25,128 nucleotides of DNA from Nanobdellota archaeon (GCA_041305285.1 JBFYLU010000075.1:1-25128), one strand, 5' to 3'; positions 1,480 to 24,303 are shown, numbered from the stretch's first letter. Notes: generated by a model not told the origin, from the sequence alone. A program made the numbers and translations.

Positions 1480-2523
1480 ATGATTATTGGACTAACAGGA
1501 ACTAAAGCTTCTGGAAAGGGGATTCTTGCTGAAATACTTAGGGAAGAAGGGTTTGTTTATTCATCAACCTCAGATAGGGTTAGAGAAGAAGCCATTTTAA
1601 GAGGCATTGAAAATTATACTATAAAAGATTTACAAAATATTGGAAATGAATTAAGAGAAAAATTTGGTTGTGATATTCTTGTTAAAAGAACTCTTGAAAA
1701 GTTAAAGGATAGTAAAAATTTAGTTATTGATGGCATAAGAAATCCTGGTGAAATTGAAGCATTAAAAAAACAAAATGCAAAAATTGTTGCTGTTGATGCT
1801 CCAGAAAAACAACGATTTGAAAGATTAATAAAAAGAGCAAGACATAGCGACCCTAAAACTTGGGAAGAATTTATTGCAATGGAAAAAAGAGATTCTGGAA
1901 TTGGAGAGTCAAACACTGGACAGCAAACATCAAAATGCATTGAAATGGCAGATTATAGGATAATAAATGAAGGAACTCTTGAAGAATTAAAGACTAAAAT
2001 TGAATATTTTTTAATGAAGGTCATCTCTAATAATAAAATAAGGAAAAGAGGTAATTATCTGTCTTGGGACGAGTATTTTATGGGAGTTGCATTTTTATCT
2101 GCTCAAAGAAGCAAAGATCCAAATACACAAGTTGGAGCATGCATTGTTAATTCTGAAAAGAAAATCATAGGAACAGGTTATAATGGTTTTCCGATTGGAT
2201 GTTCTGATGACAATCTTCCATGGCAGAGGGAAGGAAATTTCTTAGATACAAAATATCCTTATGTTTGCCACGCTGAATTAAACGCAATTCTTAATAGCAC
2301 TAGAGATTTAAATGGCTGCACTATTTATGTTGGAATGTTTCCATGCAATGAATGCGCTAAAGCAATAATTCAGTCAGGAATAAAAGAAGTTGTTTATCTT
2401 AGTGATAAGTATATTGACAGCGATTCTGTAAAAGCATCCAAAAGAATGTTTAATCAGGCAGGAATAAGACAGAAGCAATTATTTTTGAATAAAGATTCAA
2501 TATTAATTAATTTAGTTTGCTGA
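1480..2523 (+). CDS. Fusion: N-terminal P-loop NMP/dephospho-CoA-kinase-like domain plus C-terminal dCMP deaminase (ComEB/DCD family)
   Basis: N-terminal [13 protein letters not shown] Walker A and [11 protein letters not shown]-terminal [29 protein letters not shown] and PCNECAK (Zn-binding deaminase motifs). TATA at 1451-1458. Confidence 0.9.
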
Positions 2524-2558: not shown

Positions 2559-2858
2559 CTAATAACTCGGCATCAATTCATTGTGCCCAAACTGAATCAT
2601 CAAGTCAATTTCTTTCTCAATCTCTTTATTTAATACAGGAGTATCACACGCTCCAAAGCACGAATCCATCCAAATAATAAACTCAACCTTGCCTTTAGTA
2701 TTTTCTACAAGGTAATCAACAACAGCAGTAGCATATGGCTTTAAACCATCTGGAAACTGCAATAAAACCAGCTTGGCATTGTTTTTCTTTATATTTGCAA
2801 TTACTTTGTCTAATTCCAAGTCATAGGTTTCATTTAATTCCTGTATTGTTCTTTGCAT
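2559..2858 (-). CDS. dph2: Diphthamide synthase Dph2, N-terminal domain only (99 aa; split gene or fragment)
   Basis: VLLQFPDGLK, SCFGACD and IQFGH match Dph2 domain 1. Full-length archaeal Dph2 is ~340 aa. TATA begins 29 nt upstream (2887). Confidence 0.8.
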   Translation of the reverse strand: MQRTIQELNETYDLELDKVIANIKKNNAKLVLLQFPDGLKPYATAVVDYLVENTKGKVEFIIWMDSCFGACDTPVLNKEIEKEIDLMIQFGHNELMPSY

Positions 2859-2973: not shown

Positions 2974-3711
2974 CTATTTCTTTAGAGCTTCAAGAATTTG
3001 AGATTCCAAACCTGTAAGTTTCAGAGTTTCCAAAGCTCTCTGAATATCTTTAGAAGTATATGCTTCTACTCTTGATTCTTTTCCACTTGGCTTCGCGACT
3101 TCGTCGCTCGCACGTACCCCACGAGCCTCATTATCGTCAAGTTCGAGGTCCCAGTTGCCACCAATACCAGACCTGTCGCCTTCGCCAACCCCGCAAAGCC
3201 ACGCTTGTCTTGCAAATGGCGTGTTTCCAGAATTTGCTAAATAAAATTGAATATTGTCAATTCCATTTTCTTTAAGGAATTCGCCGTATTCTTTTGCATT
3301 CTTGCCAAAGGCAAAGTTTGTTAGTGCTTCATCTGCAAATCTCCTTGTTGGAATTTCAGTGTTTGTTCTCTTTACAGAGTCTGCAAGTGATTCTTCTACT
3401 TGTTCATCAGTTAAATAAAAATCCTTTCTACTTCTGTGACAATCTGTTGCTTGTTTTGCATTTGCCATTATTGGAGATTTCTTTGATAAAAAAATTCCTC
3501 TATCTGAATCATAAATAAATGCCTCTCTTGTCCAGTTTCCCCTTCTTGAAACGCTTGAATCTGAACCTTCTTGAACTCTTAATCCTGCCTGCTCTTCAAG
3601 AGATATAACTCTATAGCCATTGCTTTCCAGAGCTTCTTTTGCTTTATCAAAAGCTCCGACAGCATAAGCTGAATGAAGTTTTCCTCTTGTTACATCTTGT
3701 GTTATTTCCAT
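2974..3711 (-). CDS. Putative DGR target (variable) protein, copy 1, predicted C-type-lectin-fold C-terminal variable region
   Basis: Paralogue of 15417-16040. The C-terminal segment ARQAWLC-(20 variable aa)-NEARGVR resembles the W...S...RGVR variable region of DPANN DGR targets (recalled family pattern). Downstream GAA-loop hairpin. Confidence 0.7.
   Translation of the reverse strand: MEITQDVTRGKLHSAYAVGAFDKAKEALESNGYRVISLEEQAGLRVQEGSDSSVSRRGNWTREAFIYDSDRGIFLSKKSPIMANAKQATDCHRSRKDFYLTDEQVEESLADSVKRTNTEIPTRRFADEALTNFAFGKNAKEYGEFLKENGIDNIQFYLANSGNTPFARQAWLCGVGEGDRSGIGGNWDLELDDNEARGVRASDEVAKPSGKESRVEAYTSKDIQRALETLKLTGLESQILEALKK
3095..3192 (-). mobile_element. DGR-like variable region (3133-3192), conserved IMH-like segment and GCGAC-GAA-GTCGC hairpin (3095-3107)
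   Basis: Local GC-rich patch. 15 of 20 variable codons end in C/T. A perfect 5-bp stem with GAA triloop (minus strand) lies 25 nt downstream of the variable core. Confidence 0.65.
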
Positions 3712-3814
3712 GCTTTTTCATAAGAAATGGGATATTTAAAACTTTATATTGTTACTTCTACAAAGTTTGCACAAACTTCACAACATGATAAGCAATTCCA
3801 GTTGCCAATGCTCC

Positions 3815-3991
3815 TTAATTAGGCAAAGCAGGTGGCTGAGGGACTGAACTTCCAGGAATCAAAGAACTAACATCCCCGCCTGAAATCCACAAGTAAATTC
3901 CTATTCCAGCAGCAATTAAGACTGCAATAACTAATATCCAAATCCATAAACTGCTCTTTTTTTCTTGCATTTCTGTTGTTTGTTCATCCAT
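3815..3991 (-). CDS. Small single-pass membrane protein (58 aa) with C-terminal QPPALP motif
   Basis: ATG at 3991 is 1 nt after the stop of the upstream gene. The TM segment WIWILVIAVLIAAGIGIYLW is nearly the same as that of 4980-5705. Confidence 0.7.
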   Translation of the reverse strand: MDEQTTEMQEKKSSLWIWILVIAVLIAAGIGIYLWISGGDVSSLIPGSSVPQPPALPN

Positions 3992-3992
3992 T

Positions 3993-4940
3993 TTAATAAT
4001 TAATATGTCTTCCAATTAAACAAGGCGGAATAGCGTTGTTAAACTGATTCCTAATGGCAGTATTTGTTTCTTCATAAGCCAGGGCCCCACTTTCTCCTCC
4101 TTGTTCTTCCATTAAGTCTGCAACTTCTTGCAAATCACTTTCTGGAACTAAGCTAGCATATTTTTGAGCCACGCATCTTGAGGCAGCATCACAATCTGTT
4201 TGTGAATTATAATCATCAGCATTATTTAAGTCACACTCTTCATATGCAAGTTCCTCATAATAATAATCTTCAATAGTTTTTCTTAATCCAGTATTATTCC
4301 CATTTCCAGGCAAAGGTGGAGGAGAAATTCCACTTGACTCTCCAAGAGTGCAATCATTTGTAACCTTAACAATTAATCCTAATCCTATAGAATCTGAAGT
4401 CAAATGCTCATTCATAAAATTATCATTAACTAAATTACTAGACCACTCCTGAACAATCTGCTCAAAATGATATACTTTTTCAATATCACAATCTCTTGTA
4501 ATGTCCTCAAAACTACTTCCACTCATGTCAGGAGTTATAGTTACAAAATTCCATCCTGCACTAAGCTGCCGCATAGACAATGGCATGTAATCCTCTAAAG
4601 TGGAATATTTTAATATCCCGTCTTTATTAGAATAAACCCACATAGCACTTGTTAATGCAACATCATCATCAATATTAGCAGACATATCCACCTCTGGATG
4701 AATCTGAACATATCTTCTAAGATTTGGAGCATAATACCACACTGCTTTGATATCTGATGCTTGAATTTCACTGTCACTTGTTATTGCTTCATTAGGCATA
4801 ATTCCTGCAATAATATTCCATCCTTTTACAACACTTACTTCCACACTATAAGGAGCATCATTCCCACCAGTCATTGTATTTGCACAGACTAAAACTCCCA
4901 GACTAATCAAAAGAATTAATGTAGCAATTACTTTTTTCAT
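3993..4940 (-). CDS. Secreted/surface protein (S-layer-like, acidic, Cys-containing)
   Basis: N-terminal signal peptide MKKVIATLILLISLGVLVCA, two GWN beta-strand motifs (VKGWNII, SAGWNFV), a PPPLP linker and an acidic C-terminal domain. Confidence 0.7.
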   Translation of the reverse strand: MKKVIATLILLISLGVLVCANTMTGGNDAPYSVEVSVVKGWNIIAGIMPNEAITSDSEIQASDIKAVWYYAPNLRRYVQIHPEVDMSANIDDDVALTSAMWVYSNKDGILKYSTLEDYMPLSMRQLSAGWNFVTITPDMSGSSFEDITRDCDIEKVYHFEQIVQEWSSNLVNDNFMNEHLTSDSIGLGLIVKVTNDCTLGESSGISPPPLPGNGNNTGLRKTIEDYYYEELAYEECDLNNADDYNSQTDCDAASRCVAQKYASLVPESDLQEVADLMEEQGGESGALAYEETNTAIRNQFNNAIPPCLIGRHINY

Positions 4941-4979
4941 ATATTCTAAAAAACATCCTTCTTTTTATAATTATCCATT

Positions 4980-5705
4980 TTACCAGCTAACAGCAGGATA
5001 TTCATTTAAGAAATGCTGAGTTACTGGATTATTAATATCAGCTGAATCACTATAATCATAAGAAACAGAGCCGTCTTCATTGCTTGTTCTGTCAGACTCA
5101 AGGATAAATACCTGCTCATATTCACTTCCTTGGCTGGTAAACCATAAAAGTTCATGGATTTCTAGACTATAAACACTGGTTCCAGGAACAGGAGAAAGTT
5201 CAGGAAACATTGCTCTGGTAACTTCCTGAAAAGTATCCTTGCCTTTGCTAAAATTTCCAAGTGTCACAAAGATAGTTTTTTTATTTAAATTATTAAAATA
5301 TGTTAAAAAAGTTCCGCTAGAGCACACCTCTCCACTAACATTAATTTCATTTCCTTCAACATCAGTCATCCCAGGTTCATAATTAGTGCATTCCTCTTGC
5401 CCTGCTTCTGCTGACTCTAAAACATAATCACTAATTGTTTCTGGAAACTCAGAAGTTTCTAGGATATCTGTCTGAGAAATTATCTCCTCTTCTCCTGCCT
5501 CTTCTTCATTGCCAAGAATCTTCCCATAATCTGCAAATAAGTAAATTCCAATTCCTATTGCAATTAAAACCACTAAAACAAGTGTAATCCAAATCCAAGC
5601 CCTGCTTCCTTGTTCAGGAACTTCTTCTGCTGTTGATGAAGGAGCCTGCTCATTGTATGTCTCATTTTCTGCATTGTTTGTTTCATCTGGGGTTTCTTCA
5701 TCCAT
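4980..5705 (-). CDS. Membrane-anchored acidic surface protein
   Basis: Acidic N-tail, a single TM (AWIWITLVLVVLIAIGIGIYLF) and an acidic ectodomain with two Cys. Confidence 0.7.
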   Translation of the reverse strand: MDEETPDETNNAENETYNEQAPSSTAEEVPEQGSRAWIWITLVLVVLIAIGIGIYLFADYGKILGNEEEAGEEEIISQTDILETSEFPETISDYVLESAEAGQEECTNYEPGMTDVEGNEINVSGEVCSSGTFLTYFNNLNKKTIFVTLGNFSKGKDTFQEVTRAMFPELSPVPGTSVYSLEIHELLWFTSQGSEYEQVFILESDRTSNEDGSVSYDYSDSADINNPVTQHFLNEYPAVSW

Positions 5706-5781
5706 AATATTTCATGAAATTAAATATTCTATATAAATCTTTTGAAGCAGGGTATTGTATTAATTAAAACATAGTAAGAAA

Positions 5782-5789
5782 TTATTAAA
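5782..5789 (+). promoter_or_regulatory. Candidate TATA box for the hairpin RNA
   Basis: aagaa-a-TTATTAAA-aaccc. +29 nt gives 5811, one base before hairpin 1, and no plus-strand CDS follows. Confidence 0.5.
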
Positions 5790-5811
5790 AACCCTTGATT
5801 CTTATGAAAAT

Positions 5812-5920
5812 TGGTTAAGCTTCGGCTTAATCAGAGATAGAACTTCGGTTCTCATCTCACGCTTAACTTCGGTTAGGCACTGGAGGCCAGAAACTTCGGT
5901 TACTGCCTCCTACTTTTTTT
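5812..5920 (+). ncRNA. Candidate small structured RNA: four tandem C(UUCG)G hairpins followed by a T-tract
   Basis: Hairpins at 5812-5833 (9 bp), 5834-5858 (10 bp + bulge), 5861-5878 (7 bp) and 5882-5910 (11 bp with a mismatch and a bulge). All four loops are TTCG closed by C-G. G-U pairs work only on the + strand. T7 tract at 5914-5920. Confidence 0.65.
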
Positions 5921-5946
5921 ATTTTAATAAAATATTCTCTTAGATT

Positions 5947-6411
5947 TCAATTATGCTTCTTATGATTATTCTTCCAAGTTAATCTTTTAAGACTGAATGT
6001 TTTCTGCAGGCTTATTCTATCCAATAGATACTCTCCAACAAATGCAAAAGGAACGGCAATTATAAACGCAGTTAAAACAATTTTAAGAGTTATTGCATCT
6101 CCTATTGCAAGAGAAAAAGCAATCAAATCCTCAGCAACTCCTAAAACAACCCCAAATATCAAGAACTCTAAAAAAACCTCAAGATTCTTGTATTTCTTAT
6201 TTAAATTAAATAATTTCAAAAAATCAATTCTATCCACCACATACTCTCCTAAAAAAGCAAATGGAAGAGTAACTAAGAATATAATCAGCAAGATAAAAAG
6301 AGTTATTGGTTCATTTGTAATAAACTTAATTAAAATAATATCTTCTATTATTCCAAGAATTATCCCTCCAATTAAAAATTCCAAAAAGATAAATAATCTA
6401 TTGTTTTTCAT
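5947..6411 (-). CDS. 4-TM membrane protein with internal tandem duplication and intramembrane acidic residues
   Basis: Two ~65-aa repeats: FLEFLIGGIILGIIED...PFAFLGEYVVDRI and FLEFLIFGVVLGVAED...PFAFVGEYLLDRI. TATA begins at 6440. Confidence 0.75.
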   Translation of the reverse strand: MKNNRLFIFLEFLIGGIILGIIEDIILIKFITNEPITLFILLIIFLVTLPFAFLGEYVVDRIDFLKLFNLNKKYKNLEVFLEFLIFGVVLGVAEDLIAFSLAIGDAITLKIVLTAFIIAVPFAFVGEYLLDRISLQKTFSLKRLTWKNNHKKHN

Positions 6412-6482
6412 AGAGATATATTGATTTAAAGATTTATAAATTCTTTAGAAATCTTTTTAACCTACTTTAATCATTCTTAACT

Positions 6483-8228
6483 ATGGCAAATATTCGTCAA
6501 CCTATTGTGACTGTCTGCGGGCATGTAGACCATGGAAAAACATCTATTCTTGATTGTCTTAGGCAGAGCTGTGTTCAGGAAGCAGAAGCAGGAGGAATAA
6601 CCCAAAAGATTTCATTCACAAAATACCCAATAGACAAGTTAAAATCAGCCTGTCCACTAATAGAAAAATCAGGAATCAAGCTAAATATCCCAGGATTTCT
6701 CCTTATTGACACTCCAGGACACGCAGCATTTACTAATCTTAGAAAAAGAGGAGGAGCATTAGCAGACTTGGCTGTTCTTGTAATTGACATTAATGAAGGA
6801 ATAAAACCCCAGACATCAGAAGTCATTCAAATCCTAAAAATGAACAAGACTCCTTTCTTGATTGCAATGAACAAAATAGATAATATTTCTGGCTGGCACG
6901 CAAACAAGGACAAGGGAATCAAGGAAAGCATTGAATCCCAAAGAGAGCCTGTTCTTCAGTTATTTCAGGAAAGATACATGACCCTAATAGGTTCACTAAA
7001 CAGCTATGGCTTTGACGCTGATTTATATTATAATATACAGGATTTCACAAAGAAGATTGCATTGGTTCCTGTTTCTGCAAGAACTAAAGAAGGAGTCCAG
7101 GAACTAATAATGATGCTCTGCGGAATAAGCCAAAAATATCTAAGCAATAAATTGGAAATTGGAAAAGATGCAAAAGGAGTAATGCTTGAGGTAAAAACAG
7201 AAAAAGCAATAAATTTCAGCGAGGCAATACTTTATGATGGAGAATTATCCAAAAAAGACACAATTGCAGTTGCTAATTTTGAAAATCCAGACAAGCCAAT
7301 AATAACTAAAATAAGGATTCTTGAAGAAATAGAGCCACTATGCCCAAAATTCAAGCCAAAAGAAAAAGTTCAGGCTTCTACTGGACTAAGAATGCAGTTA
7401 ATAGAAAAAGCAAACATTCTTCCTGGAATGCCTTTTGAAATATTCAGGGATAATCTGCCTGAAATAAAAGAAAAATTCAAAAAAGAAATATCTGAAAACA
7501 TAAAAACCCAAAGCAATGGAATAATCGCAAAGGCAGATTCTTTAGGAAGCCTTGAAGCTCTTTTAGTATTGTTAAAAGAAAATCATATCCCAGTTGTAAA
7601 AGCAGGAATAGGAAAGATAAGCAAGACAGATATTATTTCTGCAAAAGCCAATCTGGAAATAAATGAGCTTGATGCCTTGATTATTGGTTTTAATACTGAA
7701 ATAGACGAAGAAGCAAAAGAAATTAAAGGCAATATAAAAATCATCACAGATGAAGTTATCTATAAATTAATTGAAAATCTTGTGAAATTCAGGCAGGAAA
7801 AAACAAAAGAAATTGAAAAAAGAAGGCTAATGGAATTAGCAACACTATGCAAGCTTGAGATACTTCACCAGTATGTATTTAGAAACACAAGTCCTGCAAT
7901 ATTTGGTGTGAGAGTTAGTGCAGGAAAAGCAATTCAAGACCTGCATTTTATAGACGAGAGTGGAGAAAAAGTAGGAAGAATAAAAAACATCCAGCATGAA
8001 AAAGCATCTGTTCCAGAAGCAACAGAAGGCATGGAAGTTGCTATCTCTGTTCCAGGAGCAAACTATGAAAGGCAAATCAAGCCATTAAAATACTTATATT
8101 CTGATATCTCTGAATCTCAGTTCAGGACATTTAAGAAAAACAAGGATTTGCTAAGTCAAGGCGAGGTAAAAACTCTGCAGGAAATTGCAGAAATAAAACG
8201 AAAAGAAAAAAGTGAATGGGGAATGTAA
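6483..8228 (+). CDS. infB: Translation initiation factor aIF5B (IF-2)
   Basis: RQPIVTVCGHVDHGKTS, GGITQ, IDTPGHAAFTNLRKRGG and MNKID. The 581-aa length and KADSLGSLEAL domain III match archaeal IF5B. Confidence 0.97.
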   Translation: MANIRQPIVTVCGHVDHGKTSILDCLRQSCVQEAEAGGITQKISFTKYPIDKLKSACPLIEKSGIKLNIPGFLLIDTPGHAAFTNLRKRGGALADLAVLVIDINEGIKPQTSEVIQILKMNKTPFLIAMNKIDNISGWHANKDKGIKESIESQREPVLQLFQERYMTLIGSLNSYGFDADLYYNIQDFTKKIALVPVSARTKEGVQELIMMLCGISQKYLSNKLEIGKDAKGVMLEVKTEKAINFSEAILYDGELSKKDTIAVANFENPDKPIITKIRILEEIEPLCPKFKPKEKVQASTGLRMQLIEKANILPGMPFEIFRDNLPEIKEKFKKEISENIKTQSNGIIAKADSLGSLEALLVLLKENHIPVVKAGIGKISKTDIISAKANLEINELDALIIGFNTEIDEEAKEIKGNIKIITDEVIYKLIENLVKFRQEKTKEIEKRRLMELATLCKLEILHQYVFRNTSPAIFGVRVSAGKAIQDLHFIDESGEKVGRIKNIQHEKASVPEATEGMEVAISVPGANYERQIKPLKYLYSDISESQFRTFKKNKDLLSQGEVKTLQEIAEIKRKEKSEWGM

Positions 8229-8229
8229 T

Positions 8230-8466
8230 ATGAGCATAACTTTGAGCCCATGTGAAGAAAGAGTTTTTGTCACAGAATACGCAATAACAGAAAGAATGCA
8301 TCTTAAAGATATTCCAGAATCACAATTAAAACAAATTATTGATGTCCTTAAAATTACTTGCTCTTGTGCTGATAATTCTTGTTATAAAACCATTGAAGAA
8401 ATGGTGGATAATTTTCCTCCTAAATTAGATAAAGCAATACTAAGATATTATGGACTTTGTTATTAA
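8230..8466 (+). CDS. Hypothetical protein (~78 aa)
   Basis: ATG is 1 nt after the infB stop. No motif recognised. Confidence 0.5.
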   Translation: MSITLSPCEERVFVTEYAITERMHLKDIPESQLKQIIDVLKITCSCADNSCYKTIEEMVDNFPPKLDKAILRYYGLCY

Positions 8467-9551
8467 TTGCTTCTCAATCTAAGTTTTCTTTGAGTGGCTT
8501 TGAACTCTGGTGTTGGCTCTTTTCTTAAAAAAGCAGGCATTGCAAAGTTAAAAAATTCCTGTCCTGCTTTGTCTATCATTGCATCTGTTCCAACAAGCTC
8601 CAATTTCTTGGCACATGCATATTTTAAATCACATGAATCACATTTTCTTCCTCTTTCAGGATAAATATTCCCTGCTGTGACAGCTTCTTCTGTTCCTATA
8701 ATCATCTTTAAAACTTCTTCAAAATGCTCATTTTTCCTGTCAGACGCAACAACAACATTTGGCATTGTTTTTATCTTTGGGTTATTTGCATCAATTCCAA
8801 GAGCATCAATCATGAAAAATTCAACAACAAAATCAGGATGAATAAAATTAGGATGCCCCATGAATGTCTCAACAACTTGTTTTTCTAGTCCTAATCTCTC
8901 TGCAATTTCAGGATAATGTTTGCATAAGGAACACAATCCAACATTATACATTGTTAGTTGAGGGTCAAAAAAAGATTTCATGTCACCAACCCATGGATTT
9001 CCTGACTTGTAGTCTCTAATCACAACTTTTCCATCTCTTTTTCTAATATCATCCATTCTTCCTGTAAATCTCCTGTTTCCAAGAACAAAATCAAAAGGCA
9101 ATTCACTAAACTCTGGTTTTCCTTCCTTCATAAGATAATCAAACAAAGGCACGCATATTCTTGGAAGAGTTCCATTTACCTGCCATGCTTCTCCATCAAA
9201 CTTCCAATTAATTAATCTCCCTTCATTTCTTTCAGCTTCCTGCTCTAGTTCTTTTGTTGCATACTCTTCTCTTAGTTTCTTGTCTGCTATGATTATTCTT
9301 TTCCATTTCCCTTGAGAGTAGTTTGAAAAACTCTCAGCATCATGGTATTTTTTTCCAGAACTCTTCTTTGCAACCTCATCAGGTGTTCCTAATTTATCCC
9401 AGAAATTATCTATTAGAGCATGCAATAAAGAGCCTCTAACATAAGCAGATAATCTCAATGGCTTTGGCTTGTCTGAATCAACATAATTAAGATAATACCT
9501 CATTCTGCAATAATTAGCAACATTAATCCTTGTAGCACTCCACTTAATCAT
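8463..9551 (-). CDS. PD-(D/E)XK nuclease, Cas4/AddB/RecB-like with 4-Cys Fe-S motif
   Basis: N-terminal NYCRMRYYL, GSLLH, GRMD...IRDYKSG, QLTMY and C-terminal CDSCDLKYAC (C-x2-C-x5-C). Confidence 0.85.
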   Translation of the reverse strand: MIKWSATRINVANYCRMRYYLNYVDSDKPKPLRLSAYVRGSLLHALIDNFWDKLGTPDEVAKKSSGKKYHDAESFSNYSQGKWKRIIIADKKLREEYATKELEQEAERNEGRLINWKFDGEAWQVNGTLPRICVPLFDYLMKEGKPEFSELPFDFVLGNRRFTGRMDDIRKRDGKVVIRDYKSGNPWVGDMKSFFDPQLTMYNVGLCSLCKHYPEIAERLGLEKQVVETFMGHPNFIHPDFVVEFFMIDALGIDANNPKIKTMPNVVVASDRKNEHFEEVLKMIIGTEEAVTAGNIYPERGRKCDSCDLKYACAKKLELVGTDAMIDKAGQEFFNFAMPAFLRKEPTPEFKATQRKLRLRSN

Positions 9552-9609
9552 AACTAAAAATTAATTCAGGATTTTATAAGAATTATTGTCTTGTAATAAT
9601 CAAGAAATA

Positions 9610-9927
9610 TCAATTAGTTTCAAGATTTACACACTCACTGCCTACAAGAATCTCTATCCCGCAGTTTTTAATCAATCTATTGAGTTTTCTTACATCCTGA
9701 GGAGGCATTTTGCAGATAATCCTTTGATACTCTTCTATTACTTTAGAAGCATATGCATTGAATAAAGGATTACCCTCTCTGCTTGTGTTAGCATCCCGTG
9801 CATAAACCATTAAATCATTTGTTCTCTTTTTCCATTCACTAAACGCCTCTCCAACATCCCTTAATTCAAATTTATCTCTTCCAGTAATATGATAATACCA
9901 TTCCTTAACTCTTCCTTTAATTCCCAT
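9610..9927 (-). CDS. Hypothetical protein (105 aa)
   Basis: ATG with TTTATATA beginning 29 nt upstream (9956). No motif. Confidence 0.6.
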   Translation of the reverse strand: MGIKGRVKEWYYHITGRDKFELRDVGEAFSEWKKRTNDLMVYARDANTSREGNPLFNAYASKVIEEYQRIICKMPPQDVRKLNRLIKNCGIEILVGSECVNLETN

Positions 9928-10056
9928 TAAAAAATATTTTTATTATAGTATATAAATATTTTCTTAACACAGAAACTTTATAGACAAAAGTCAAAGATAT
10001 TTTAACTATAAAACATCTAAGATAAGTTTTATAAAGCGATTTTCTCATAAATAAAT

Positions 10057-10599
10057 ATGTTTAAGTTTAATATATCAACAAAACAAGGAAAAACCTTTAA
10101 GTTAGAAGCAGAAGCTATTGGCTTGAAACAGCAAAAAATAGGGGATATTGTTAAAGGAGAAGAAATCCTGCCTGATTTGTCTGGTTATGAATTGCAAATA
10201 ACAGGAGCAAGTGATATTGCAGGATTGCCAGCTCTTGAAATAGTTGAAGGAATTGGATTAAAAAGAGTTCTTCTTGGTTTAGGAACAGCAATGCACAGGC
10301 GTCCTAAAGGAAACAAGAAAAAAATAAAACGTCCTACTAAAGGCCTTAAATTAAGAAAAACAATAAGAGGAAAAGTAATATCAGATGCAATTTCTCAGAT
10401 TAATATGAAAGTTGTAAAAGAAGGTTCAAAATCTCTGAACGCAGTTTTCCCAGAGCAAAACAAATCAGAGGCTCCTCCTGCAGAAGTCCAGGCAGAATCA
10501 GTAGTTGAAAGTCCAAAGCAAGCAGAGCAAAAAGCAGAGTTAGCTAATCCAGACAAAGAACCAAAAGAAGTTGTTGAAAAAGAAGTTGAACAGAGTTAA
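10057..10599 (+). CDS. rps6e: 30S ribosomal protein eS6 (S6e) with low-complexity acidic C-terminal extension
   Basis: FKFNIS, IGDIVKG, GYELQITGASD and LRKTIRGKVISDAISQINMKV. Confidence 0.92.
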   Translation: MFKFNISTKQGKTFKLEAEAIGLKQQKIGDIVKGEEILPDLSGYELQITGASDIAGLPALEIVEGIGLKRVLLGLGTAMHRRPKGNKKKIKRPTKGLKLRKTIRGKVISDAISQINMKVVKEGSKSLNAVFPEQNKSEAPPAEVQAESVVESPKQAEQKAELANPDKEPKEVVEKEVEQS

Positions 10600-10704
10600 A
10601 ATTCTTAGATAGGAGATAGTGCAAATAAATTAGTTTTTATTTGTTAAGATAAAGGATAGTTGAGCAATTATATTCAGATTTTTATTTCATTAATAGATTT
10701 TTAA

Positions 10705-11274
10705 TTATCCATACAAGAACGGCTTATCTACTGCAAGTTCATGAGTTACAACAGCAGTTGGAATAGAATTTGAAACCCCTATTTTAAAGTCCTTTACCTT
10801 GCCTGTTCCAAAACCTCCTTCACATCTTACATATAACTGGACTTTATCTCCAGTATTAACATTAATATTTTCATAAAAAGTCCTGTAGGAAGAACTAGTT
10901 CCTTTATGTTGAGTTCCGTTTGCAACTCCATTTAAATAAATTCTTCCATATGAATCATAGCTTCCGCATTCAACTAAACTAAAACTAACATTAACTGTTC
11001 CAGCTTGTGCAACTTGAATCTCTTTGGTTTTATAATAAGTTCCTCCACTAATAGAAGATTCTAATGAAGAGTGCGCAATAATAACATTTCCAGGAGCAAA
11101 AGTGCTCATTTTATTAACATAATCCTGAACAGAGTCTCCATTGTTTAATGAAACTTGTGCAGCAGGATGAAAAGGAAGTGAGGTATTAACAGCAGCATAA
11201 ACTCCTGTTCCAATTAAGAATATTCCTAATACAACCAGCAAAATCTTCTTGTCTATATTCACCTCAATCTTCAT
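10705..11274 (-). CDS. Membrane-anchored/secreted beta-rich surface protein
   Basis: N-terminal basic-then-hydrophobic segment (DKKILLVVLGIFLIGTGVYA) and a Ser/Thr/Gly/Tyr-rich beta-strand-like C-terminus. TATA begins at 11303. Confidence 0.65.
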   Translation of the reverse strand: MKIEVNIDKKILLVVLGIFLIGTGVYAAVNTSLPFHPAAQVSLNNGDSVQDYVNKMSTFAPGNVIIAHSSLESSISGGTYYKTKEIQVAQAGTVNVSFSLVECGSYDSYGRIYLNGVANGTQHKGTSSSYRTFYENINVNTGDKVQLYVRCEGGFGTGKVKDFKIGVSNSIPTAVVTHELAVDKPFLYG

Positions 11275-11552
11275 ATCTTAAATAATATTAGGGAGTATTT
11301 AAAGATTTTTATCTGTTTTTATTAGCTACAAACAATTAATATTTTATTAATTCAACAAACATTTAAGATTTAAGAGGCTATTGCAAGATAGTTGCTCTAG
11401 TCAAATGACTGTGTTGATTTATTTTATCCAAAAAGAGGTGATAATAACTTCCAACTTATCTGCTGATTATCCAATTAATTATCTTCTAACTCAAAAAGAG
11501 GGGATAATTTTAATTCAATAACTTTAAAAAACTCCTTCAATAACATATTTCT

Positions 11553-12740
11553 ATGAACAAAGAACTTCCTGAAATGAATGTTGGTGTTGTCGGGCATATT
11601 GACCACGGAAAGACAACTCTTCTTAGCAAGCTTTCTGGAAAATTCACAGACACTCATTCAGAAGAACTAAAGAGAGGAATCACAATAAAACTAGGTTATG
11701 CAGACGCAACTATTTCTAATGACAATGGTTTTTACAACATTCAGGGAAAAGGCACTCCAGTCAGATACATAAGCTTCATAGACGCTCCAGGACATGAGAT
11801 GCTAATGGCTACAATGCTTTCAGGAGCAGCAATAATTGATGCTGCAATTCTCGTGATTGCTGCAAATGAAGGAATAAAACCTCAAACAAAAGAGCATTTT
11901 GCAGCTTTGCAAGCCAAGAACATAAAGAACATTATTATTGTCCAGAATAAAATAGATTTAGTAAGCAAAGAGCAGGCATTAAAGAGCTACAATGAAGTAA
12001 AAAAATTCATAAAAGGAACTATTGCAGAAAACTCCCCTGTTATCCCAATATCTGCTCAGCAAGAAATCAACATAGACAAGATACTTGAAGAACTAGCTAA
12101 GTTCAAGATTCCAGAAAGAGATTCAAAGGGAAATCCAATTTTTCTTGTTGCAAGAAGTTTTGACATAAACAAGCCAGGAACACAAATAAAAAATCTTCAT
12201 GGAGGAGTTCTTGGAGGAATATTAAAAAAAGGAACATTAAAAGTCGGAGATGAGATTGAAATCAAGCCAGGATTAACAATAAAAAAACACAATGAACAAA
12301 TTTACAAGCCACTAATAACAAAAATAATCTCTCTTCATAAGGGAAAAGATTCTGTGGATGAAATTGTTCCTGGAACAAGCATTTCAATTGAAACAGAGCT
12401 TGACCCATCACTGACAAAATCAGATTCATTGATTGGATGCCTTGCTTCAAAAAAATCAATTCTTCCAGAAATAACCTACAAAATCAAGATAAAAGAAAAA
12501 CTCTTGGAACATGTATTTGGAACAGCAGACAATCAAAAAGTAGAGCCAATAAAGCCTACTGAAATGCTCATGTTTTCAATAAACACAACAATAACTGTAG
12601 GAAAAGTAGAGAAAATAAAAGACAATGTTCTTGAAGTCTTGCTAAAGATTCCAATCATCTCATTGGCAGGAGACAATGTTGGAATTGCAAGAAATATTAA
12701 TAATCACTGGCGTTTGATTGGCTGGGGAACCTTGGAATAA
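11553..12740 (+). CDS. eif2g: Translation initiation factor aIF2 gamma subunit
   Basis: NVGVVGHIDHGKTTL, HSEELKRGITIKLGY, FIDAPGHEMLMATMLSGAA, QNKID, ARSFDINKPG and WRLIGWG. Confidence 0.96.
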   Translation: MNKELPEMNVGVVGHIDHGKTTLLSKLSGKFTDTHSEELKRGITIKLGYADATISNDNGFYNIQGKGTPVRYISFIDAPGHEMLMATMLSGAAIIDAAILVIAANEGIKPQTKEHFAALQAKNIKNIIIVQNKIDLVSKEQALKSYNEVKKFIKGTIAENSPVIPISAQQEINIDKILEELAKFKIPERDSKGNPIFLVARSFDINKPGTQIKNLHGGVLGGILKKGTLKVGDEIEIKPGLTIKKHNEQIYKPLITKIISLHKGKDSVDEIVPGTSISIETELDPSLTKSDSLIGCLASKKSILPEITYKIKIKEKLLEHVFGTADNQKVEPIKPTEMLMFSINTTITVGKVEKIKDNVLEVLLKIPIISLAGDNVGIARNINNHWRLIGWGTLE

Positions 12741-12846
12741 TCAATCAAATACATACCTTTATAACCCTTATTTTTCTGAATATTTCATAGAATAATATAA
12801 GGCAACACATGTTTCTTTATGTTATATATCAGGAGGATAAAAACCA

Positions 12847-13011
12847 ATGGGAGAATTTAGACCAAGAAACAATTTCAATAGTTTCGGTCCACGAACAATG
12901 CACAAGGCAACTTGCAAGCAATGCGGAAAAGAATGCGAAGTTCCATTCAAGCCTACACCAGGCCGAGATGTATTTTGCAGAGATTGCTTTAGTAAAAGAA
13001 AAGCTGCTTAA
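12847..13011 (+). CDS. CxxC-x17-CxxC zinc-binding domain protein (54 aa), not in ORF track
   Basis: Own translation: MGEFRPRNNFNSFGPRTMHKATCKQCGKECEVPFKPTPGRDVFCRDCFSKRKAA. Exact CxxC-x17-CxxC spacing with the family's VPFKP motif (TIGR04272-type, recalled). AGGAGG at 12831-12836. Confidence 0.9.
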   Translation: MGEFRPRNNFNSFGPRTMHKATCKQCGKECEVPFKPTPGRDVFCRDCFSKRKAA

Positions 13012-13072
13012 TTGCACTAAACAAGATTTTTCATAAATCTTGAAACATTTTTTATTTTTTTATTATATTCCA

Positions 13073-13429
13073 TCAAGGAAGACTTACTCTTCCTTTCTTA
13101 ATCTTACTGAACACATAAGGTTTGCACAATACTTCTAAAATTTCAAGTCTGGATTTTTTATCCAAATTATCTGGAACAGAAACAGGTTTGTTTTTCTCAA
13201 GAAAATGCATTCCTTCTAAGACTCCTATCTTGTCATCTTCATTTTGCAATCTTAATTGAGAGTAAAACACTTCCAAAGCAATTAACTCTGCATATCTAAA
13301 TGCTCCCACTACAACCCTTCCATTTACCTCTGCTTTTATCTTGTAATCTGTTCTTAATAATCTATAAGATAAATCAGCTTTAAATCTCTCCCACATGGAA
13401 GTTCCAAACTCACTAAAATAGCTTCTCAT
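13073..13429 (-). CDS. Hypothetical protein (118 aa)
   Basis: Intact ORF with a TATA-like element ~30 nt upstream. No motif. Confidence 0.55.
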   Translation of the reverse strand: MRSYFSEFGTSMWERFKADLSYRLLRTDYKIKAEVNGRVVVGAFRYAELIALEVFYSQLRLQNEDDKIGVLEGMHFLEKNKPVSVPDNLDKKSRLEILEVLCKPYVFSKIKKGRVSLP

Positions 13430-13518
13430 TGTCTTAATAGCATAAGCGCGACTTTTATAAATTTTTTGAAAAAATAAACAGCAATAAAACTTATATAATG
13501 CAATTATTTTTTAAAGAA

Positions 13519-14373
13519 ATGGTGAAGATATACTCTCATTCTAGAATAAGCACTTTTGAACAATGCAGATTAAAATTCAAGTTCAAGTATATTGACAAGA
13601 TTCTTCCTGAAATAGAAAAATCAATAGAAAGCCATCTCGGAACTTGCATTCACAAAACAATGGAATGGATTTATTCCCAGGTGAAAATTGGAGAGCTTCC
13701 TTCAATAGATGATGTTATAGTTGATTACTCCAAGCACTGGAAAAGGGAGTATGTTCCTGGAATGATTATAGTGAATGAATCTCTAACTGACAAGGATTAC
13801 TTCAATAAAGGAATCCAGTTTCTCCTTGATTATTATTCAAAGCACTATCCTTTTGATGACGGAACAATTGCACTTGAAAAAGAAATAAGAATTAAGCTGG
13901 ATGAAAAAGGAAAATACGAGATAATTGGGTTTATTGACAGACTTGTAAAAAATCTTCAGACAGGAGAGTATGAAATCCATGATTACAAGACAGCAAACTC
14001 TCTTCCAACTCAAGAAAAAATGGATAGTGACAGGCAACTGGCTTTGTATGCAATTGCAATCAAAGAAATCTATGGCTATGCCAATGAAGTCTGCTTAATC
14101 TGGCACTATCTTGCGCATAATCAAAGAATCTGCTCTAAAAGAACCAATGAGCAATTAAACAAATTAAGGCAAGAAACTCTTGAATTAATAAAGCAAATAG
14201 AATCAACAAATGAATTCCCCCCAAATAAAGGAAGACTATGCGACTGGTGCGAATACAAGCAAATGTGCCCTGCATGGAACACTTCAGAAGAAAACAAACA
14301 AGATAATCAAGTTAAAGAAATTAAAGTAGATGTGAATAAATACCCGACAATCTCAAAGTATATCAAGGATTAA
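13519..14373 (+). CDS. PD-(D/E)XK nuclease, Cas4/RecB-like with 4-Cys Fe-S motif
   Basis: YSHSRISTFEQCRLKFKFKY, GTCIH, GFIDRL...IHDYKT, QLALYA and CDWCEYKQMCP. Start moved to ATG 13519 because CTTATATA begins 29 nt upstream. Confidence 0.88.
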   Translation: MVKIYSHSRISTFEQCRLKFKFKYIDKILPEIEKSIESHLGTCIHKTMEWIYSQVKIGELPSIDDVIVDYSKHWKREYVPGMIIVNESLTDKDYFNKGIQFLLDYYSKHYPFDDGTIALEKEIRIKLDEKGKYEIIGFIDRLVKNLQTGEYEIHDYKTANSLPTQEKMDSDRQLALYAIAIKEIYGYANEVCLIWHYLAHNQRICSKRTNEQLNKLRQETLELIKQIESTNEFPPNKGRLCDWCEYKQMCPAWNTSEENKQDNQVKEIKVDVNKYPTISKYIKD

Positions 14374-15362
14374 TCAGTTCCTCTTGCATGAGGCATAATC
14401 TTGCCATGAGGCATTTTAGCATCTCTAATGTCTTCTCTATCCACTCCTAAACTAAGAAGCAATGAAATTTGTTCATCTGGCAAACCTCTTATTTTAAACT
14501 CTCTTCCTTGTGATTTTATCACTCTGTAAAACTTTGCAATTGTTCCAAGAGCATCTGCATCAATTTGAGCTTTTCTAAAATCAAGATAATTAATATCTCT
14601 TCCCAATCTTTCAATTGGATGATACACATCTTCCATGACATTATCCAAACTTACTCTGCCTTTTATTGCAAGTGAATTTGCCCAGCTAATCCACCCCTTA
14701 TCAAAAAAACTCTTAGCCTCTATTTTTGGAGTTAAAACAATGCTCCCGCCCATAAATTCCCCTTCTTCAGCGCAATGAACATACCCATCTACTCTGAATC
14801 TATACCCTCCAATTTCAAAGATATTATGCGGAAATGGTATCTCTCCTTGAGCACAATCTCTGGCATGACTTTCAAAACCAAGAAGATAGTTCCAGAAATA
14901 CCTGTCTAGTCTCAGTGATTTATCCTTTGTATTTAATATTTGGCTTGGTTTTTTTCCAACTATCTCGCCCTTGTAAGAAATGCATGCTCTTGCACTTGGA
15001 TTAAAATACCTGACAACACCTTCATTATCGAGATGTATGACAAGATGAGGAGACTCTTCTTCAATGCACCTTCCAAGATTTAGGGTTGGAGAATTTTCTG
15101 TTAATGCCAGTTGTTCTTCCAAATCACTTCTTTTTACTTCAAGTTCCCTGATAATCTTGGCAAGTCTTCCAGCTTCCAATTCCAATGCAGCACAGGTTAC
15201 TATTGCCTGGCTTCCTCTTTGATAAAACTCCTCTTCTCTTCCTTTAAATGTTCTTTCCAGTTCAATATATTCAGGAGAATGCAAAACAATGTGCTCTCTT
15301 GCAGAATCAGTTAATAATAATCTGACTAATCTATCTCTTAACTCCCCTAATCTCAATCCCAT
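14370..15362 (-). CDS. Coiled-coil + PAS-like + STAS-like (anti-sigma antagonist fold) signalling protein
   Basis: Heptad-like LAKIIRELEVKRSDLEEQL. PAS-like VIHLDNEGVVRYFNPSA...EIVGKK. STAS-like LAIKGRVS...YLDFRKAQIDADALGTIAKFYRVIKSQGREFKIRGL...LLLSLGVD. The ATG at 15362 fits the TATA spacing (15391). Confidence 0.65.
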   Translation of the reverse strand: MGLRLGELRDRLVRLLLTDSAREHIVLHSPEYIELERTFKGREEEFYQRGSQAIVTCAALELEAGRLAKIIRELEVKRSDLEEQLALTENSPTLNLGRCIEEESPHLVIHLDNEGVVRYFNPSARACISYKGEIVGKKPSQILNTKDKSLRLDRYFWNYLLGFESHARDCAQGEIPFPHNIFEIGGYRFRVDGYVHCAEEGEFMGGSIVLTPKIEAKSFFDKGWISWANSLAIKGRVSLDNVMEDVYHPIERLGRDINYLDFRKAQIDADALGTIAKFYRVIKSQGREFKIRGLPDEQISLLLSLGVDREDIRDAKMPHGKIMPHARGTD

Positions 15363-15416
15363 AAATTCCACAAGAAATCTTTTTATTTAAACTTAAGTGT
15401 ATTAAACTATTCTTGT

Positions 15417-16040
15417 TTAGTCGCTTGCACGCACTCCACGAACCTCATTACGATAATAGCTAAGGCCAACGCCATAACCCTCAAGTCTGGACATGGCAGA
15501 ATTATCATCAACCCTGCAACTGCAAAGCCACGCTTGTCTTGCAAACAGCATGTTTCTAGGAGTTGCTAGATTAACCTGTATGCTTTTAATTTCATTTTCG
15601 TCAAGTAATTCTCCATATGCTTTTGCATTTTTGCCAAAAGCAAAACTTGTTAGTGCTTCATCTGCAAATCTTCTTGTTGGAATTTCAGTGTTTGTTATCT
15701 TTACAGAGTCTGCAAGTGATTCTTCTACTTGTTCATCAGTTAAATAAAAATCATTTTCCTTTCTATTTCTATCTGTTGCCTGTTTTGCATTTGCCATTAT
15801 TGGAGATTTCTTTGATAAGAAAATTCCTCTAGCTGAATCATAAATAAATGCCTCTCTTGTTATATTTGTCATTTGAGAAACACTTGAATTTATTCCTTCT
15901 TGAACTCTTAATCCTGCATTTTCCTCTAATGAGGTTATTCTATAACCCTTTGCTTCCAAGGCTTTTTTTGCCTTGTCAAAAGCTCCGAGAACATAAGCTG
16001 AATGAAGTTCTCCTCTTGCTACATCCTTTATGACCCTCAT
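15417..16040 (-). CDS. Putative DGR target (variable) protein, copy 2, lacking the 42-aa C-terminal tail
   Basis: Gap-free 132/173 aa identity to 2974-3711 up to ARQAWLC, then a different 24-aa variable segment, NEVRGVRASD and stop. Confidence 0.7.
   Translation of the reverse strand: MRVIKDVARGELHSAYVLGAFDKAKKALEAKGYRITSLEENAGLRVQEGINSSVSQMTNITREAFIYDSARGIFLSKKSPIMANAKQATDRNRKENDFYLTDEQVEESLADSVKITNTEIPTRRFADEALTSFAFGKNAKAYGELLDENEIKSIQVNLATPRNMLFARQAWLCSCRVDDNSAMSRLEGYGVGLSYYRNEVRGVRASD
15420..15521 (-). mobile_element. DGR-like variable region (15450-15521) and IMH-like segment; downstream hairpin absent
   Basis: 20 of 24 variable codons end in C/T. The 3' flank matches copy 1 through GCGAC and then becomes TAA. 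Confidence 0.55.
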
Positions 16041-16089
16041 GTTTTTTCATAAGAGATAAGGTATTTAAATATTTTTAAAGAAGGGATTA

Positions 16090-18591
16090 TTATTCAGAAC
16101 TAGCCTCTATTCCATTTTCAAGAACCTTGATAATATCTGTAACCTTGTCTCCGTCTTGCAATTTCACAATTCTTACTCCTTGAGTTGCTCGTCCCATTAC
16201 TCTTATATTCTCCAAGGAAGTTCTTATTGCCATTCCTTTTGCAGTTGTGATTATTATGTTGTCATTGTCATTTACTGAAACAGTATTGACCACATTTCCA
16301 GTCTTGTCACTAACCTTGACATTTATTACTCCTTTTCCAGCTCTTGCAGTTTTCCTGTATTCTGCTACTTCTGTTCTTTTTCCATATCCTTTTTCAGTAA
16401 TAGTCATTATAGCAACAGTGTCAAGAACCTCCAAGCTCACTACATCGTCTCCATCATCAAGTTTTATCCCAGTAACTCCATAGCTTGCTCTTCCCATTGG
16501 ACGAACATCACTGCTATTGAATCTAATTGCCTTTCCTTTTCTTGTAGCAAGAAGCACTTCCTGCTTTTCATTGACTACTTCTACGCCTATTAATGAATCT
16601 GAATTATCAGGAGGAAGATTAATTGCTCTTATTCCAGAAGCTCTTGGATTTGAGAAATTGCTTAAAGCGCTTTTCTTTACAATTCCTTTTTTAGTTGCCA
16701 TGAACAAGGCTCCTTCAAAATCCTTGACTGAAATAACTCTTGTCACAGTTTCATCTCTTAATTCAAGCATGTTTACAATTGCTTTTCCCTTGCTGTATCT
16801 TTCAGCTCCAGGAACATCATATGCCTTTAGCCACAAAACTCTTCCTCTTGAAGTAAAGAACATAAGATAATCATGAGTAGAGCAGGTAATCAACTGCTTT
16901 ACAAAATCTCCTGTTGCCAAGCCGCTTCCAATAACTCCTTTTCCTCCTCTTCTCTGCTCTTTATAAGTTTGAGTGTCCATTCTCTTGCAATATCCTTTTT
17001 CAGTGATTGTAATAACAACTTCTTTTTTCTGTATCAAATCCTTTTCTTGGATTTCTTTTATGTTTTTAAGAACACTTGTTTTTCTGTTGTCTCCATACTT
17101 GTTTCTTAATTCAGTTACTTCTTTTGTAATTATTTTAAGCACTTCATTTATATCTCCAAGGATTTTTTCAAGCTCAGTAATTGTAATTCTCAAGTCTTCT
17201 TCTTCTTTTTTCAGCTTTTCTCTTTCCATAGAAGTCAATTGCTGTAACTTAGTTTCCAATACAGCCTGAGCTTGTTTTTTTGTTAATTTGAACTTGCTTA
17301 CAAGATTTTCAAGAGCTTCTGCTGTTGATTTTGATTTCTTGATTGTTGCAATAACCTCGTCTATTTTTGCAAGTGCAATCATCAATCCCTCAACAATTTC
17401 CAGCCTTTCCTTTGCTTTTTTTAATTCAAACTTGGAACGATTAGTAATAATTATTTTTCTGTGCTTTACATATTCCTTGAGAATATCTATTAATCCAAGG
17501 GTTTTTGGCTGCTTTCCAACAAGTGCAAGCATATTAACACTAAAAGAATCCTGAAGCCTTGTGTATTGGTATAACTGGTTTATTACAAACTTAGGATTAG
17601 CTTCTTTTCTGATTTCAATAACAATTCTTATCTTGCCTTTTGAGGATTCATCTCTCAAATCAACAACATCTTTTATTTTCTTGTCTCTTACAAGCTCTGC
17701 AATCTGGGTTATAAGTGAAGCCTTGTTAAGCATATAAGGAATTTCAGTAATGACAATTGCTTCTTTTTTCTTTATTACTTCAGTAGTTGTCTTTCCTCTT
17801 ATTACAAGCTTTCCTCTTCCTGTCTTGTAAATCTCAGACATTTCTCCGCTAACTAATCCACCTGTTGGGAAATCAGGCCCTGTAACAATCTCCAAAAGCT
17901 CTTCTATCTTAATGTCAGGATTTTTAATATAAGCAATAATTGCATTGCAAATCTCTGTAAGATTATGAGGAGGAATATTAGTTGACATTCCAACAGCAAT
18001 TCCAGTTGCTCCATTAATAATTAAATTTGGAAGTCTTGCAGGAAGAAGCTCTGGCTCTTGCAATGAACCATCATAGTTATCCACAAACTTCACTGTTTCC
18101 TTGTCTATGTCTTCAATAATTTCAGTTGAAATTGGCATCAACTTTGCTTCTGTATACCTGTCTGCAGCAGCAGAATCTCCGTCAAGTGAACCAAAATTAC
18201 CCTGCCCAAAAACAAGAGGATATCTCAATGAAAAATCCTGAGCCATTCTTACTAATGCATCATAAACAGCGAGATTTCCATGAGGATGATACTTACCCAT
18301 AGTATCTCCGACAATTCTTGCGCATTTCTTTGTCTGGGTATTTGGCTTTAATCCCATAGTCTGCATAGTATAAAGAATTCTTCTCTGAACAGGCTTAAGC
18401 CCGTCTTCTATTGAAGGAATAGCTCTTGAAACAATAACAGACATTGCATAATCAAGATAAAACTTCCTCATCTCAGAAGAAATCTCTGAGTTAATCACTC
18501 CTTTTTCATTGGAGCATTCTTTCATCACATTATCGCATTTTTCTTCTGGCTTGATTTCTTCAATTTTAGGTTTGTTTTCTTCTTCTGCCAT
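16090..18591 (-). CDS. gyrA: DNA gyrase subunit A
   Basis: [26 protein letters not shown], catalytic RY (AAADRYTE), GyrA-box QRRGGKG and C-terminal beta-pinwheel repeats. Confidence 0.97.
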
Positions 18592-24193: not shown

Positions 24194-24303
24194 TTATTTC
24201 CATGTAACATTAACTTCATCTGTTCGCTGCCTAGGCAAATGACTGCGTCGATTTGACTTATTTCCATGTAACATTAACTTCATCTGTTCGCTGCCTAGGC
24301 AAA
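24194..24303. repeat. Exact 46-bp direct repeat (24194-24239 and 24258-24303) of the kae1 3' end with an 18-bp spacer
   Basis: ttatttccatgtaacattaacttcatctgttcgctgcctaggcaaa occurs twice, separated by tgactgcgtcgatttgac. Confidence 0.95.

Follow-up and report, generated by a model that had tools for sequence, protein, structure and literature searches.

What could have produced, twice on one archaeal contig, a short hypervariable segment inside otherwise well conserved genes? The question is raised by a contig of the Nanobdellota archaeon GCA_041305285.1 (JBFYLU010000075.1, 25,128 nt; its full length is called the window below), a piece of the chromosome of a DPANN archaeon, at about 33% G+C. 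Two paralogous genes, A and B, had been taken in a sequence-only reading for orphan targets of a diversity-generating retroelement (DGR), whose reverse transcriptase (RT) and template repeat (TR) would lie elsewhere or have been lost. In our assessment A and B are very probably paralogous DGR variable-protein genes with no TR-RT module on the contig, A representing a 'partial DGR' and B a frozen truncated duplicate. The claim that they are orphan targets is upheld by homologues in cassettes with adenine-specific mismatches, by a predicted C-type lectin (CLec) fold and by the lack of both TR and RT in the window. The two genes and their upstream sequence are located as follows.

2974-3711, minus strand: gene A, long-form DGR variable protein of 245 aa with a predicted AvpA-like CLec fold and a two-helix C-terminal extension
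15417-16040, minus strand: gene B, short-form paralogue of 207 aa, which stops 6 codons past its variable region (VR) and is without the C-terminal extension
3712-3755, minus strand: upstream region of A, resembling the upstream region of B (16041-16085) and containing an A/T-rich TATA-like box

The likeness of the two proteins is as close as was first noticed: they align without gaps over the first 173 residues, 132 of which are identical (BLASTP: 70% identity, E = 1e-100), and a window repeat search finds a 300-nt stretch of the two genes to be 87% identical. The reported similarity of the promoter regions is more limited, since some 40 nt upstream of the starts do align while gapless identity over 60 nt amounts to only 33/60. 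Judging from this alignment, the upstream region appears to have been duplicated together with the gene. Two conserved flanks, TTTGCAAGACAAGCGTGGCTTTGC (3193-3216 and 15522-15545) and AATGAGGYTCGTGGRGTRCGTGCRAGCGAC (3103-3132 and 15420-15449), are found at these two places in the window and nowhere else, the chance expectation for either being zero. Between them lie 20 (A) and 24 (B) poorly alignable codons, 15 and 20 of which, respectively, end in C or T, and the G+C content of the VRs (0.58 in A, 0.47 in B) stands out against the ~0.33 of the window. All these features had been read correctly from the raw sequence, and so had the lack of a transmembrane or signal stretch: the maximal 19-residue Kyte-Doolittle means of the two proteins are 0.34 and 0.60. 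The CLec proteins of the family are apparently cytoplasmic or unexported. Pfam and PHROGs scans of both proteins returned only sub-threshold noise, and a look-up for exact copies of protein A among public assemblies was negative.

A and B belong to a large family. The database search returned 84 homologous proteins and the profile search 1003 clusters at 50% identity, from DPANN archaea where the source is named; no Pfam domain was found in the members. The named homologues come only from Pacearchaeota, Woesearchaeota, Nanoarchaeota/Nanoarchaeia and one Aenigmarchaeum metagenome-assembled genome (MAG), and the host of A and B is a Pacearchaeota-type DPANN archaeon. In every member the family alignment has a hypervariable stretch between FARQxW(L/F) and (V/M/L)RG(V/I), within which an S..L.G...L framework is fixed.

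In the relatives these genes stand in DGR cassettes. The order gene-TR-RT is present in loci L001, L003, L006, L010, L012, L014 (with a split RT), L026, L031 and L045, the TR-RT module lying 200-400 nt downstream of the long-form gene; at two further loci it is incomplete, with the TR of L007 at the contig end and the RT of L036 cut to about 107 residues. In L003 (Nanoarchaeota archaeon SCGC AAA011-G17), for instance, a 77-nt repeat of the variable stretch lies 413 nt past the homologue (9998-10726), and an RT with the YVDD motif comes next (11037-12062). TR and VR differ almost exclusively at TR adenines (96 of 104 mismatches over eight pairs, 82 of 83 without the degenerate L007). The TR ends in CGTGGAAT(A/G)GC while the VR runs on as CGTGGGGT(A/G)CG, and the RT-linked loci carry TGGGGT in the VR as the initiation of mutagenic homing site (IMH), paired with its TR counterpart TGGAAT (IMH*). 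The VR residues that do not vary, S, L, G and L, are those specified by TR codons without adenine (TCT, CTY, GGC and CTC). P0011, the target in L026, shares 74% identity with A, which matches the targets of L001 and L003 at E = 7e-71 to 1e-66. The cassettes nearest to A and B (L026, L031, L036 and L040) share an 86-nt TR encoding WLYRIDSDNRSNLNGNNRNLNYDNNEVRG. An Avd gene could be recognised in none of the archaeal cassettes that were examined.

Some of these cassettes have peculiarities of their own. In L036 an intact-looking 86-nt TR is followed by the RT of about 107 residues (6916-7375) beside P0013, which is 72% identical to A, and the adjacent VR has 83 nt; L036 is a DGR cassette in decay. 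The target gene of L031 (10001-10750) is split at about the VR into open reading frames (ORFs) of 165 and 78 aa, which is either a frameshift or an assembly collapse in the hypervariable region. L026 (entry coordinates 3600-4328 and 12699-14030) has a tyrosine integrase gene just past the RT, and a 242-aa ORF outside the family which ends in ...GGYWVDVDDGRAFGVSR, like the AvpA RFxGV/IMH-encoded motif; this ORF may represent a second family of DGR targets.

To compare A and B with the template of their clade, TR positions were classed as invariant adenine, invariant non-adenine or variable from the three TRs of L026, L036 and L031, which belong to sister genomes and are not cognate to A or B. 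Homology to the TRs of relatives also defines the extent of the VRs. The true VRs are wider than the segments first delimited: they begin at a TGG codon within what had been described as the 5' flank, and the 3' flank consists of the VR end and the IMH.

3119-3201, minus strand: VR of gene A, 83 nt, codons W-L...E-A-R-G, NNY codons 0.74 (N, any base; Y, C or T), G+C 0.58
15436-15530, minus strand: VR-derived segment of gene B, 95 nt, degenerate

A mismatches the clade TRs at 14 of 26 adenine sites and at 7 of 47 invariant non-adenine sites (Fisher p = 6e-4). For B the figures are 13 of 28 and 11 of 46, a weak excess (p = 0.04). Both VRs would thus seem to bear the imprint of adenine-mutagenic retrohoming. 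The same comparison for the RT-less loci L032, L033 and L034 and for L036 with its truncated RT gives 13-18 of 26-28 adenine sites and 0-2 of 46-47 non-adenine sites; some of these VRs are one codon short. The unequal lengths of the two VRs had been ascribed to two templates or to later indels, and indels are indeed what the alignment displays. A has a 3-nt deletion relative to the 86-nt clade TRs, one AAC of the tandem AAC AAC; in B a 12-nt insertion and a 3-nt deletion add up to a net excess of 9 nt.

The invariant positions of the two window genes have drifted. Non-adenine mismatch is 15% in A and 24% in B, against 0-4% in the RT-less relatives, whose framework is held at this level by a conserved TR. 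Nucleotide divergence of the scaffold from relatives is 15-20% for A and 22-27% for B, so the VR framework has changed in both at roughly the pace of the gene around it. The VRs of A and B also contain three residues each that AAY mutagenesis cannot yield (E, K, Q or M), where most homologues have 0-1; two of them in A are encoded by GAA (Glu) codons.

The cis elements required for homing have fared differently in the two genes.

3106-3123, minus strand: IMH of gene A, CGTGGGGTACGTGCGAGC, which contains TGGGGT
3095-3107, minus strand: hairpin of gene A, GCGAC-GAA-GTCGC, with a 5-bp G+C stem and a GRA triloop (R, A or G), inside the coding sequence
15423-15440, minus strand: degenerate IMH of gene B, CGTGGAGTGCGTGCAAGC, with TGGAGT for TGGGGT

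According to Paul et al. (2015; PMC4372165), the nanoarchaeal IMH is TGGGGT, IMH* is TGGAAT, and the archaeal DGR cis element is a GRA-triloop hairpin within the target gene. The hairpin of A is predicted to fold, and L032, L033 and L034 have one of the same sequence at the same offset. That of A was called by this positional conservation across loci and not by folding energy, since the z-score of its region (-0.46) is uninformative for so short a G+C-rich stretch. B has no such G+C hairpin, its stop codon following directly after GCGAC.

Residues 1-170 of B are closest to long forms (78% identity to P0007, 76% to A), which makes B a likely truncated duplicate. Its descent from an ancient 'short-form subfamily' was considered and rejected, the nearest relatives being long and not short forms. 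The ratio of nonsynonymous to synonymous divergence between A and B (dN/dS) is 0.375 at a dS of 0.39, suggesting that both genes are still under purifying selection. Since B has lost the hairpin, carries a mutated IMH and has gained indels, its binding surface appears to be frozen, and B is most likely a fossil that is no longer diversified.

A short form need not be inactive. L045 has one of 207 aa (5974-6597), placed 4 kb upstream of a long form with TR and RT (10001-12041). Both L045 genes have an 83-nt VR, TGGGGT and a GAA hairpin (GGTGGC-GAA-GCCACC in the short form), and adenine mismatches against the single TR make up 9 of 10 in the cis target and 11 of 12 in the short form. With the same VR length and cis elements, this short form is therefore a genuine remote target. 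Across the family, short forms appear to arise repeatedly from long forms.

Neither a TR nor an RT stands beside the targets in the window, as the sequence-only reading had supposed. No RVT_1 match was found among the window ORFs, and tblastn with two cassette RTs gave a best E of 0.97. Repeat search, flank matches and blastn found only the two VRs in the window and no third copy that could serve as a TR, and tblastn and blastn found no RT or TR remnants downstream of A and B. Pfam, tblastn and blastn agree in this, and the window holds neither the linked RT nor the TR/VR pair of a complete DGR.

Beyond the window, a scan of Joint Genome Institute (JGI) metagenomes with a pattern demanding 'VR base or A' at every position of VR A returned no matches. 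A general clade-TR pattern gave five matches in the same metagenomes, including three real TRs, all of 86 nt and none compatible with A or B. Assignment of an RT to the host by similarity failed, as the RT family has >7300 members at 63-74% identity; two candidates found only at NCBI (P0268 and P0319) come from other assemblies.

Two near-identical MAG contigs cover the surroundings of B, L028 (99.7%, 23 SNPs, i.e., single-nucleotide polymorphisms) and L029 (99.6%, 20 SNPs). Across the three strain-level assemblies there are no SNPs within B; the 90% cluster of A contains no variants of it. MAGs of the same strain as the window are GCA_041305245.1 and GCA_041305265.1. The SNPs of L028 and L029 are tightly clustered at 14145-14355, 16447-16627 and 17293-17407, in the 3' end of a PD-(D/E)XK nuclease gene and in gyrA. 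In their spacing they look like short recombination tracts, not scattered mutation.

The fold was predicted with AlphaFold2 for A from an 81-sequence alignment (pLDDT 90.5, pTM 0.79; model confidence scores). Foldseek against the PDB yields one significant match, AvpA (5ioo_A, E = 6.4e-9, probability 1.00, TM-scores 0.58/0.67), followed mostly by C-type lectin domains at E >= 0.05; the sequence profile of the family matched no PDB chain at E <= 10. In this model A would have an AvpA-like CLec fold. The CLec fold proposed from the sequence is thus supported, with a predicted CLec core and the VR on its C-terminal strands, closest to 5IOO, and the subtype is predicted to be that of AvpA and not the formylglycine-generating enzyme (FGE) type which had also been named.

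In the history we envisage, an RT would have copied an adenine-rich TR, encoding WLYRIDSDNRSNLNGNNRNLNYDNNEVRG in the nearest clade, with misincorporation opposite the adenines. The mutagenised cDNA would then have replaced the VR at the C-terminal beta-strands of the AvpA-like CLec fold, homing being guided by the TGGGGT-containing IMH and the GRA-triloop hairpin in the target gene. A would today be a 'partial DGR' whose IMH and hairpin are intact while the non-adenine framework of its VR has drifted from the clade TRs. B would be a truncated duplicate which lost the hairpin, suffered mutation of the IMH and gained indels, its protein staying under purifying selection. As to whether the RT and TR lie elsewhere or were lost, the two alternatives offered at the outset, loss or inactivity is favoured for B while for A either may hold: A is either a fossil or the remote target of a DGR not linked to it, and a TR of the type known from the clade is probably not at work on it.

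An origin of the segments without any retroelement in the lineage, as a surface loop of the ordinary kind that evolves fast because selection is relaxed or diversifying, would agree with the lack of TR and RT in the window and with the indels, which DGR substitution does not normally make. It would leave unexplained why the mismatches of both VRs, when these are aligned with TRs from sister genomes, are in excess at TR adenines, why the invariant S, L, G and L coincide exactly with adenine-free TR codons, why NNY codons and raised G+C prevail in a genome of 33% G+C, and why IMH and hairpin are conserved at the DNA level; we regard this origin as very improbable. In archaeal genomes rich in A+T, an island of high G+C is often the sign of a structured RNA, so the segments could also be thought of as an embedded RNA, or as a site-specific recombination cassette, overlapping the ORFs. 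Such an element is hardly conceivable here, although an island of this kind is present and A has a small hairpin: there is no Rfam or tRNA match, the folding z-score of the hairpin region is unexceptional, no inverted or direct repeats flank the segment, and its composition is fully accounted for by TR-derived NNY codons and the IMH.

A more serious contender is that A (B less plausibly) is a live remote target, to which an unlinked DGR supplies mutagenised cDNA in trans. A retains the TGGGGT IMH and the GAA-loop hairpin, L045 demonstrates that one TR can serve a paralogue at a distance, and the VRs of the RT-less L032, L033 and L034 fit the clade TRs at 44-46 of 46-47 non-adenine sites, which implies continuing rewriting without a linked RT. 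The same option was weighed for partial DGRs by Paul et al. (2015; PMC4372165). On the other hand, A is off every known clade TR at those 7 of 47 invariant non-adenine sites and by one codon, it contains the two GAA codons, and the JGI scan gave no TR compatible with its VR, the three clade TRs found being all of 86 nt. For B, the mutated IMH, the missing hairpin, a VR 9 nt beyond any known TR and its stasis in three assemblies speak against ongoing rewriting. Overall, live retargeting of this pair is possible, though we would sooner expect it not to take place.

The preferred interpretation, RT-less targets of which B is frozen, has to face several objections. The search covered 25 kb of the genome, and an unlinked TR-RT is possible. 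The non-adenine differences of A could reflect a divergent TR of its own, clade TRs differing among themselves at up to 11 of 86 positions, and since four of six close relatives have 83-nt VRs, an 83-nt TR variant may exist, even if none was found. The cis elements of A are intact; both overlap coding sequence, so that selection at the protein level alone could conserve them. The invariance of B is based on consensus assemblies, not on reads.

RT-less 'partial DGRs', which consist of a target gene, a VR and cis elements only, were described by Paul et al. (2015; Nat Commun 6:6585, PMC4372165), who raised for them the question of fossil or remote target. The element reported here is of this known kind, an RT-less DGR target of DPANN archaea, and involves no new mechanism. 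Relation to the Nanoarchaeota DGRs (DUSEL4 OTU1/OTU2; OTU, operational taxonomic unit) is close: a family member stands in the full cassette of SCGC AAA011-G17 (L003), a genome of the PMC4372165 study, and this cassette may be one of the four groups named there. Both have the TGGGGT IMH, the TGGAAT IMH* and a GRA-triloop hairpin inside the target gene, and in both the VR is internal and followed by a C-terminal extension. Unlike them, the window comes from a Pacearchaeota-like organism and has, on a single contig, two RT-less paralogues that have decayed to different degrees.

AvpA itself (PDB 5IOO, 'Accommodation of massive sequence variation in Nanoarchaeota by the C-type lectin fold'; Handa et al., 2016, PMC5006420) has 256 aa, a VR at residues 181-203 and a 46-residue helical C-terminal extension, with the hairpin located in the DNA of this extension. 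A resembles it in size (245 aa), in a short VR (~27 residues) near residues 175-203 which ends in a conserved IMH-encoded beta-5 strand (RFxGV in AvpA, VRGVR in A), in a helical extension of ~45 residues with the hairpin in its DNA, and in the lack of an obvious export signal. Identity in the structural alignment is, however, only 13%, and the AvpA motifs GxxVVVYAH and HPxxxPFxG are not evident in the family of A, which is a separate sequence family with the AvpA fold subtype.

The DGR of Bordetella phage BPP-1 comprises the target Mtd, the reverse transcriptase bRT, Avd, a TR/VR pair, an IMH and a cruciform. The present system shares with it adenine-specific mutagenic retrohoming into the VR of a CLec fold and a G+C-rich IMH with a downstream hairpin. 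It differs in a VR half as long, in a CLec fold of AvpA type instead of FGE type, in a hairpin that is a triloop inside the ORF and not a GRNA tetraloop, in having no Avd recognised in the archaeal cassettes examined, and in a cellular host with no tail-fibre role.

The remaining genes of the window were identified by a Pfam scan and encode aIF5B, aIF2-gamma, ribosomal proteins S6e, S28e and L7Ae, gyrase A and B, Kae1, a Dph2 fragment and two PD-(D/E)XK nucleases; Rfam and tRNA scans of the whole window gave no matches. The Dph2 fragment is a 99-aa ORF (2559-2858, minus strand) which matches only positions 1-60 of the 302-position Pfam family Diphthamide_syn. Only 115 nt separate it from gene A upstream, in the place which holds TR-RT in relatives, and on its other side it abuts the end (2523) of a convergent gene. 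A scar left by a deletion or rearrangement is conceivable here, as is a split gene. The convergent gene (1480-2523, plus strand) codes for an N-terminal P-loop kinase-like domain (AAA_18/AAA_17) fused to a dCMP/cytidine deaminase domain. The nuclease genes are located at 8463-9551 (minus strand) and 13498-14373 (plus strand), one of them with a weak Cas4 match; general domain scans recognised no cas genes on the contig, and a CRISPR array was not specifically searched for. Near the contig end a perfect 46-nt direct repeat (24194-24239 and 24258-24303, 64-nt spacing) has a second copy that forms the 3' end of the Kae1/TsaD ORF (24258-25046, minus strand). This ORF has a GTG start, and its match to the Pfam profile sets in only at position 51. 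The repeat is possibly a local duplication or an assembly artefact.

For the annotation of DPANN genomes, two 'hypothetical' genes can now be described as putative AvpA-like variable ligand-binding proteins, in keeping with the structural model, and RT-less targets at two stages of decay are added to those documented. Reading the raw sequence suffices to spot a DGR target of this type, as an NNY-rich, G+C-rich segment amid conserved flanks. The family offers comparative evidence that one TR serves dispersed long and short paralogues (L045) and that cassettes decay (L036), among some 1000 clusters at 50% identity. We may further speculate, while considering it rather unlikely, that the pair records a recurrent route in which a target is duplicated and one copy locked while the other, here A, can still be rewritten by an unlinked DGR with an unseen 83-nt TR. 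If so, locking would consist in the loss of the hairpin-bearing C-terminal extension and mutation of the IMH, and a binding specificity made by a retroelement would have passed into a stable gene under purifying selection, as B, strain-invariant and with the dN/dS given above, would exemplify. This would amount to a general 'diversify, then fix' mechanism in DPANN archaea.

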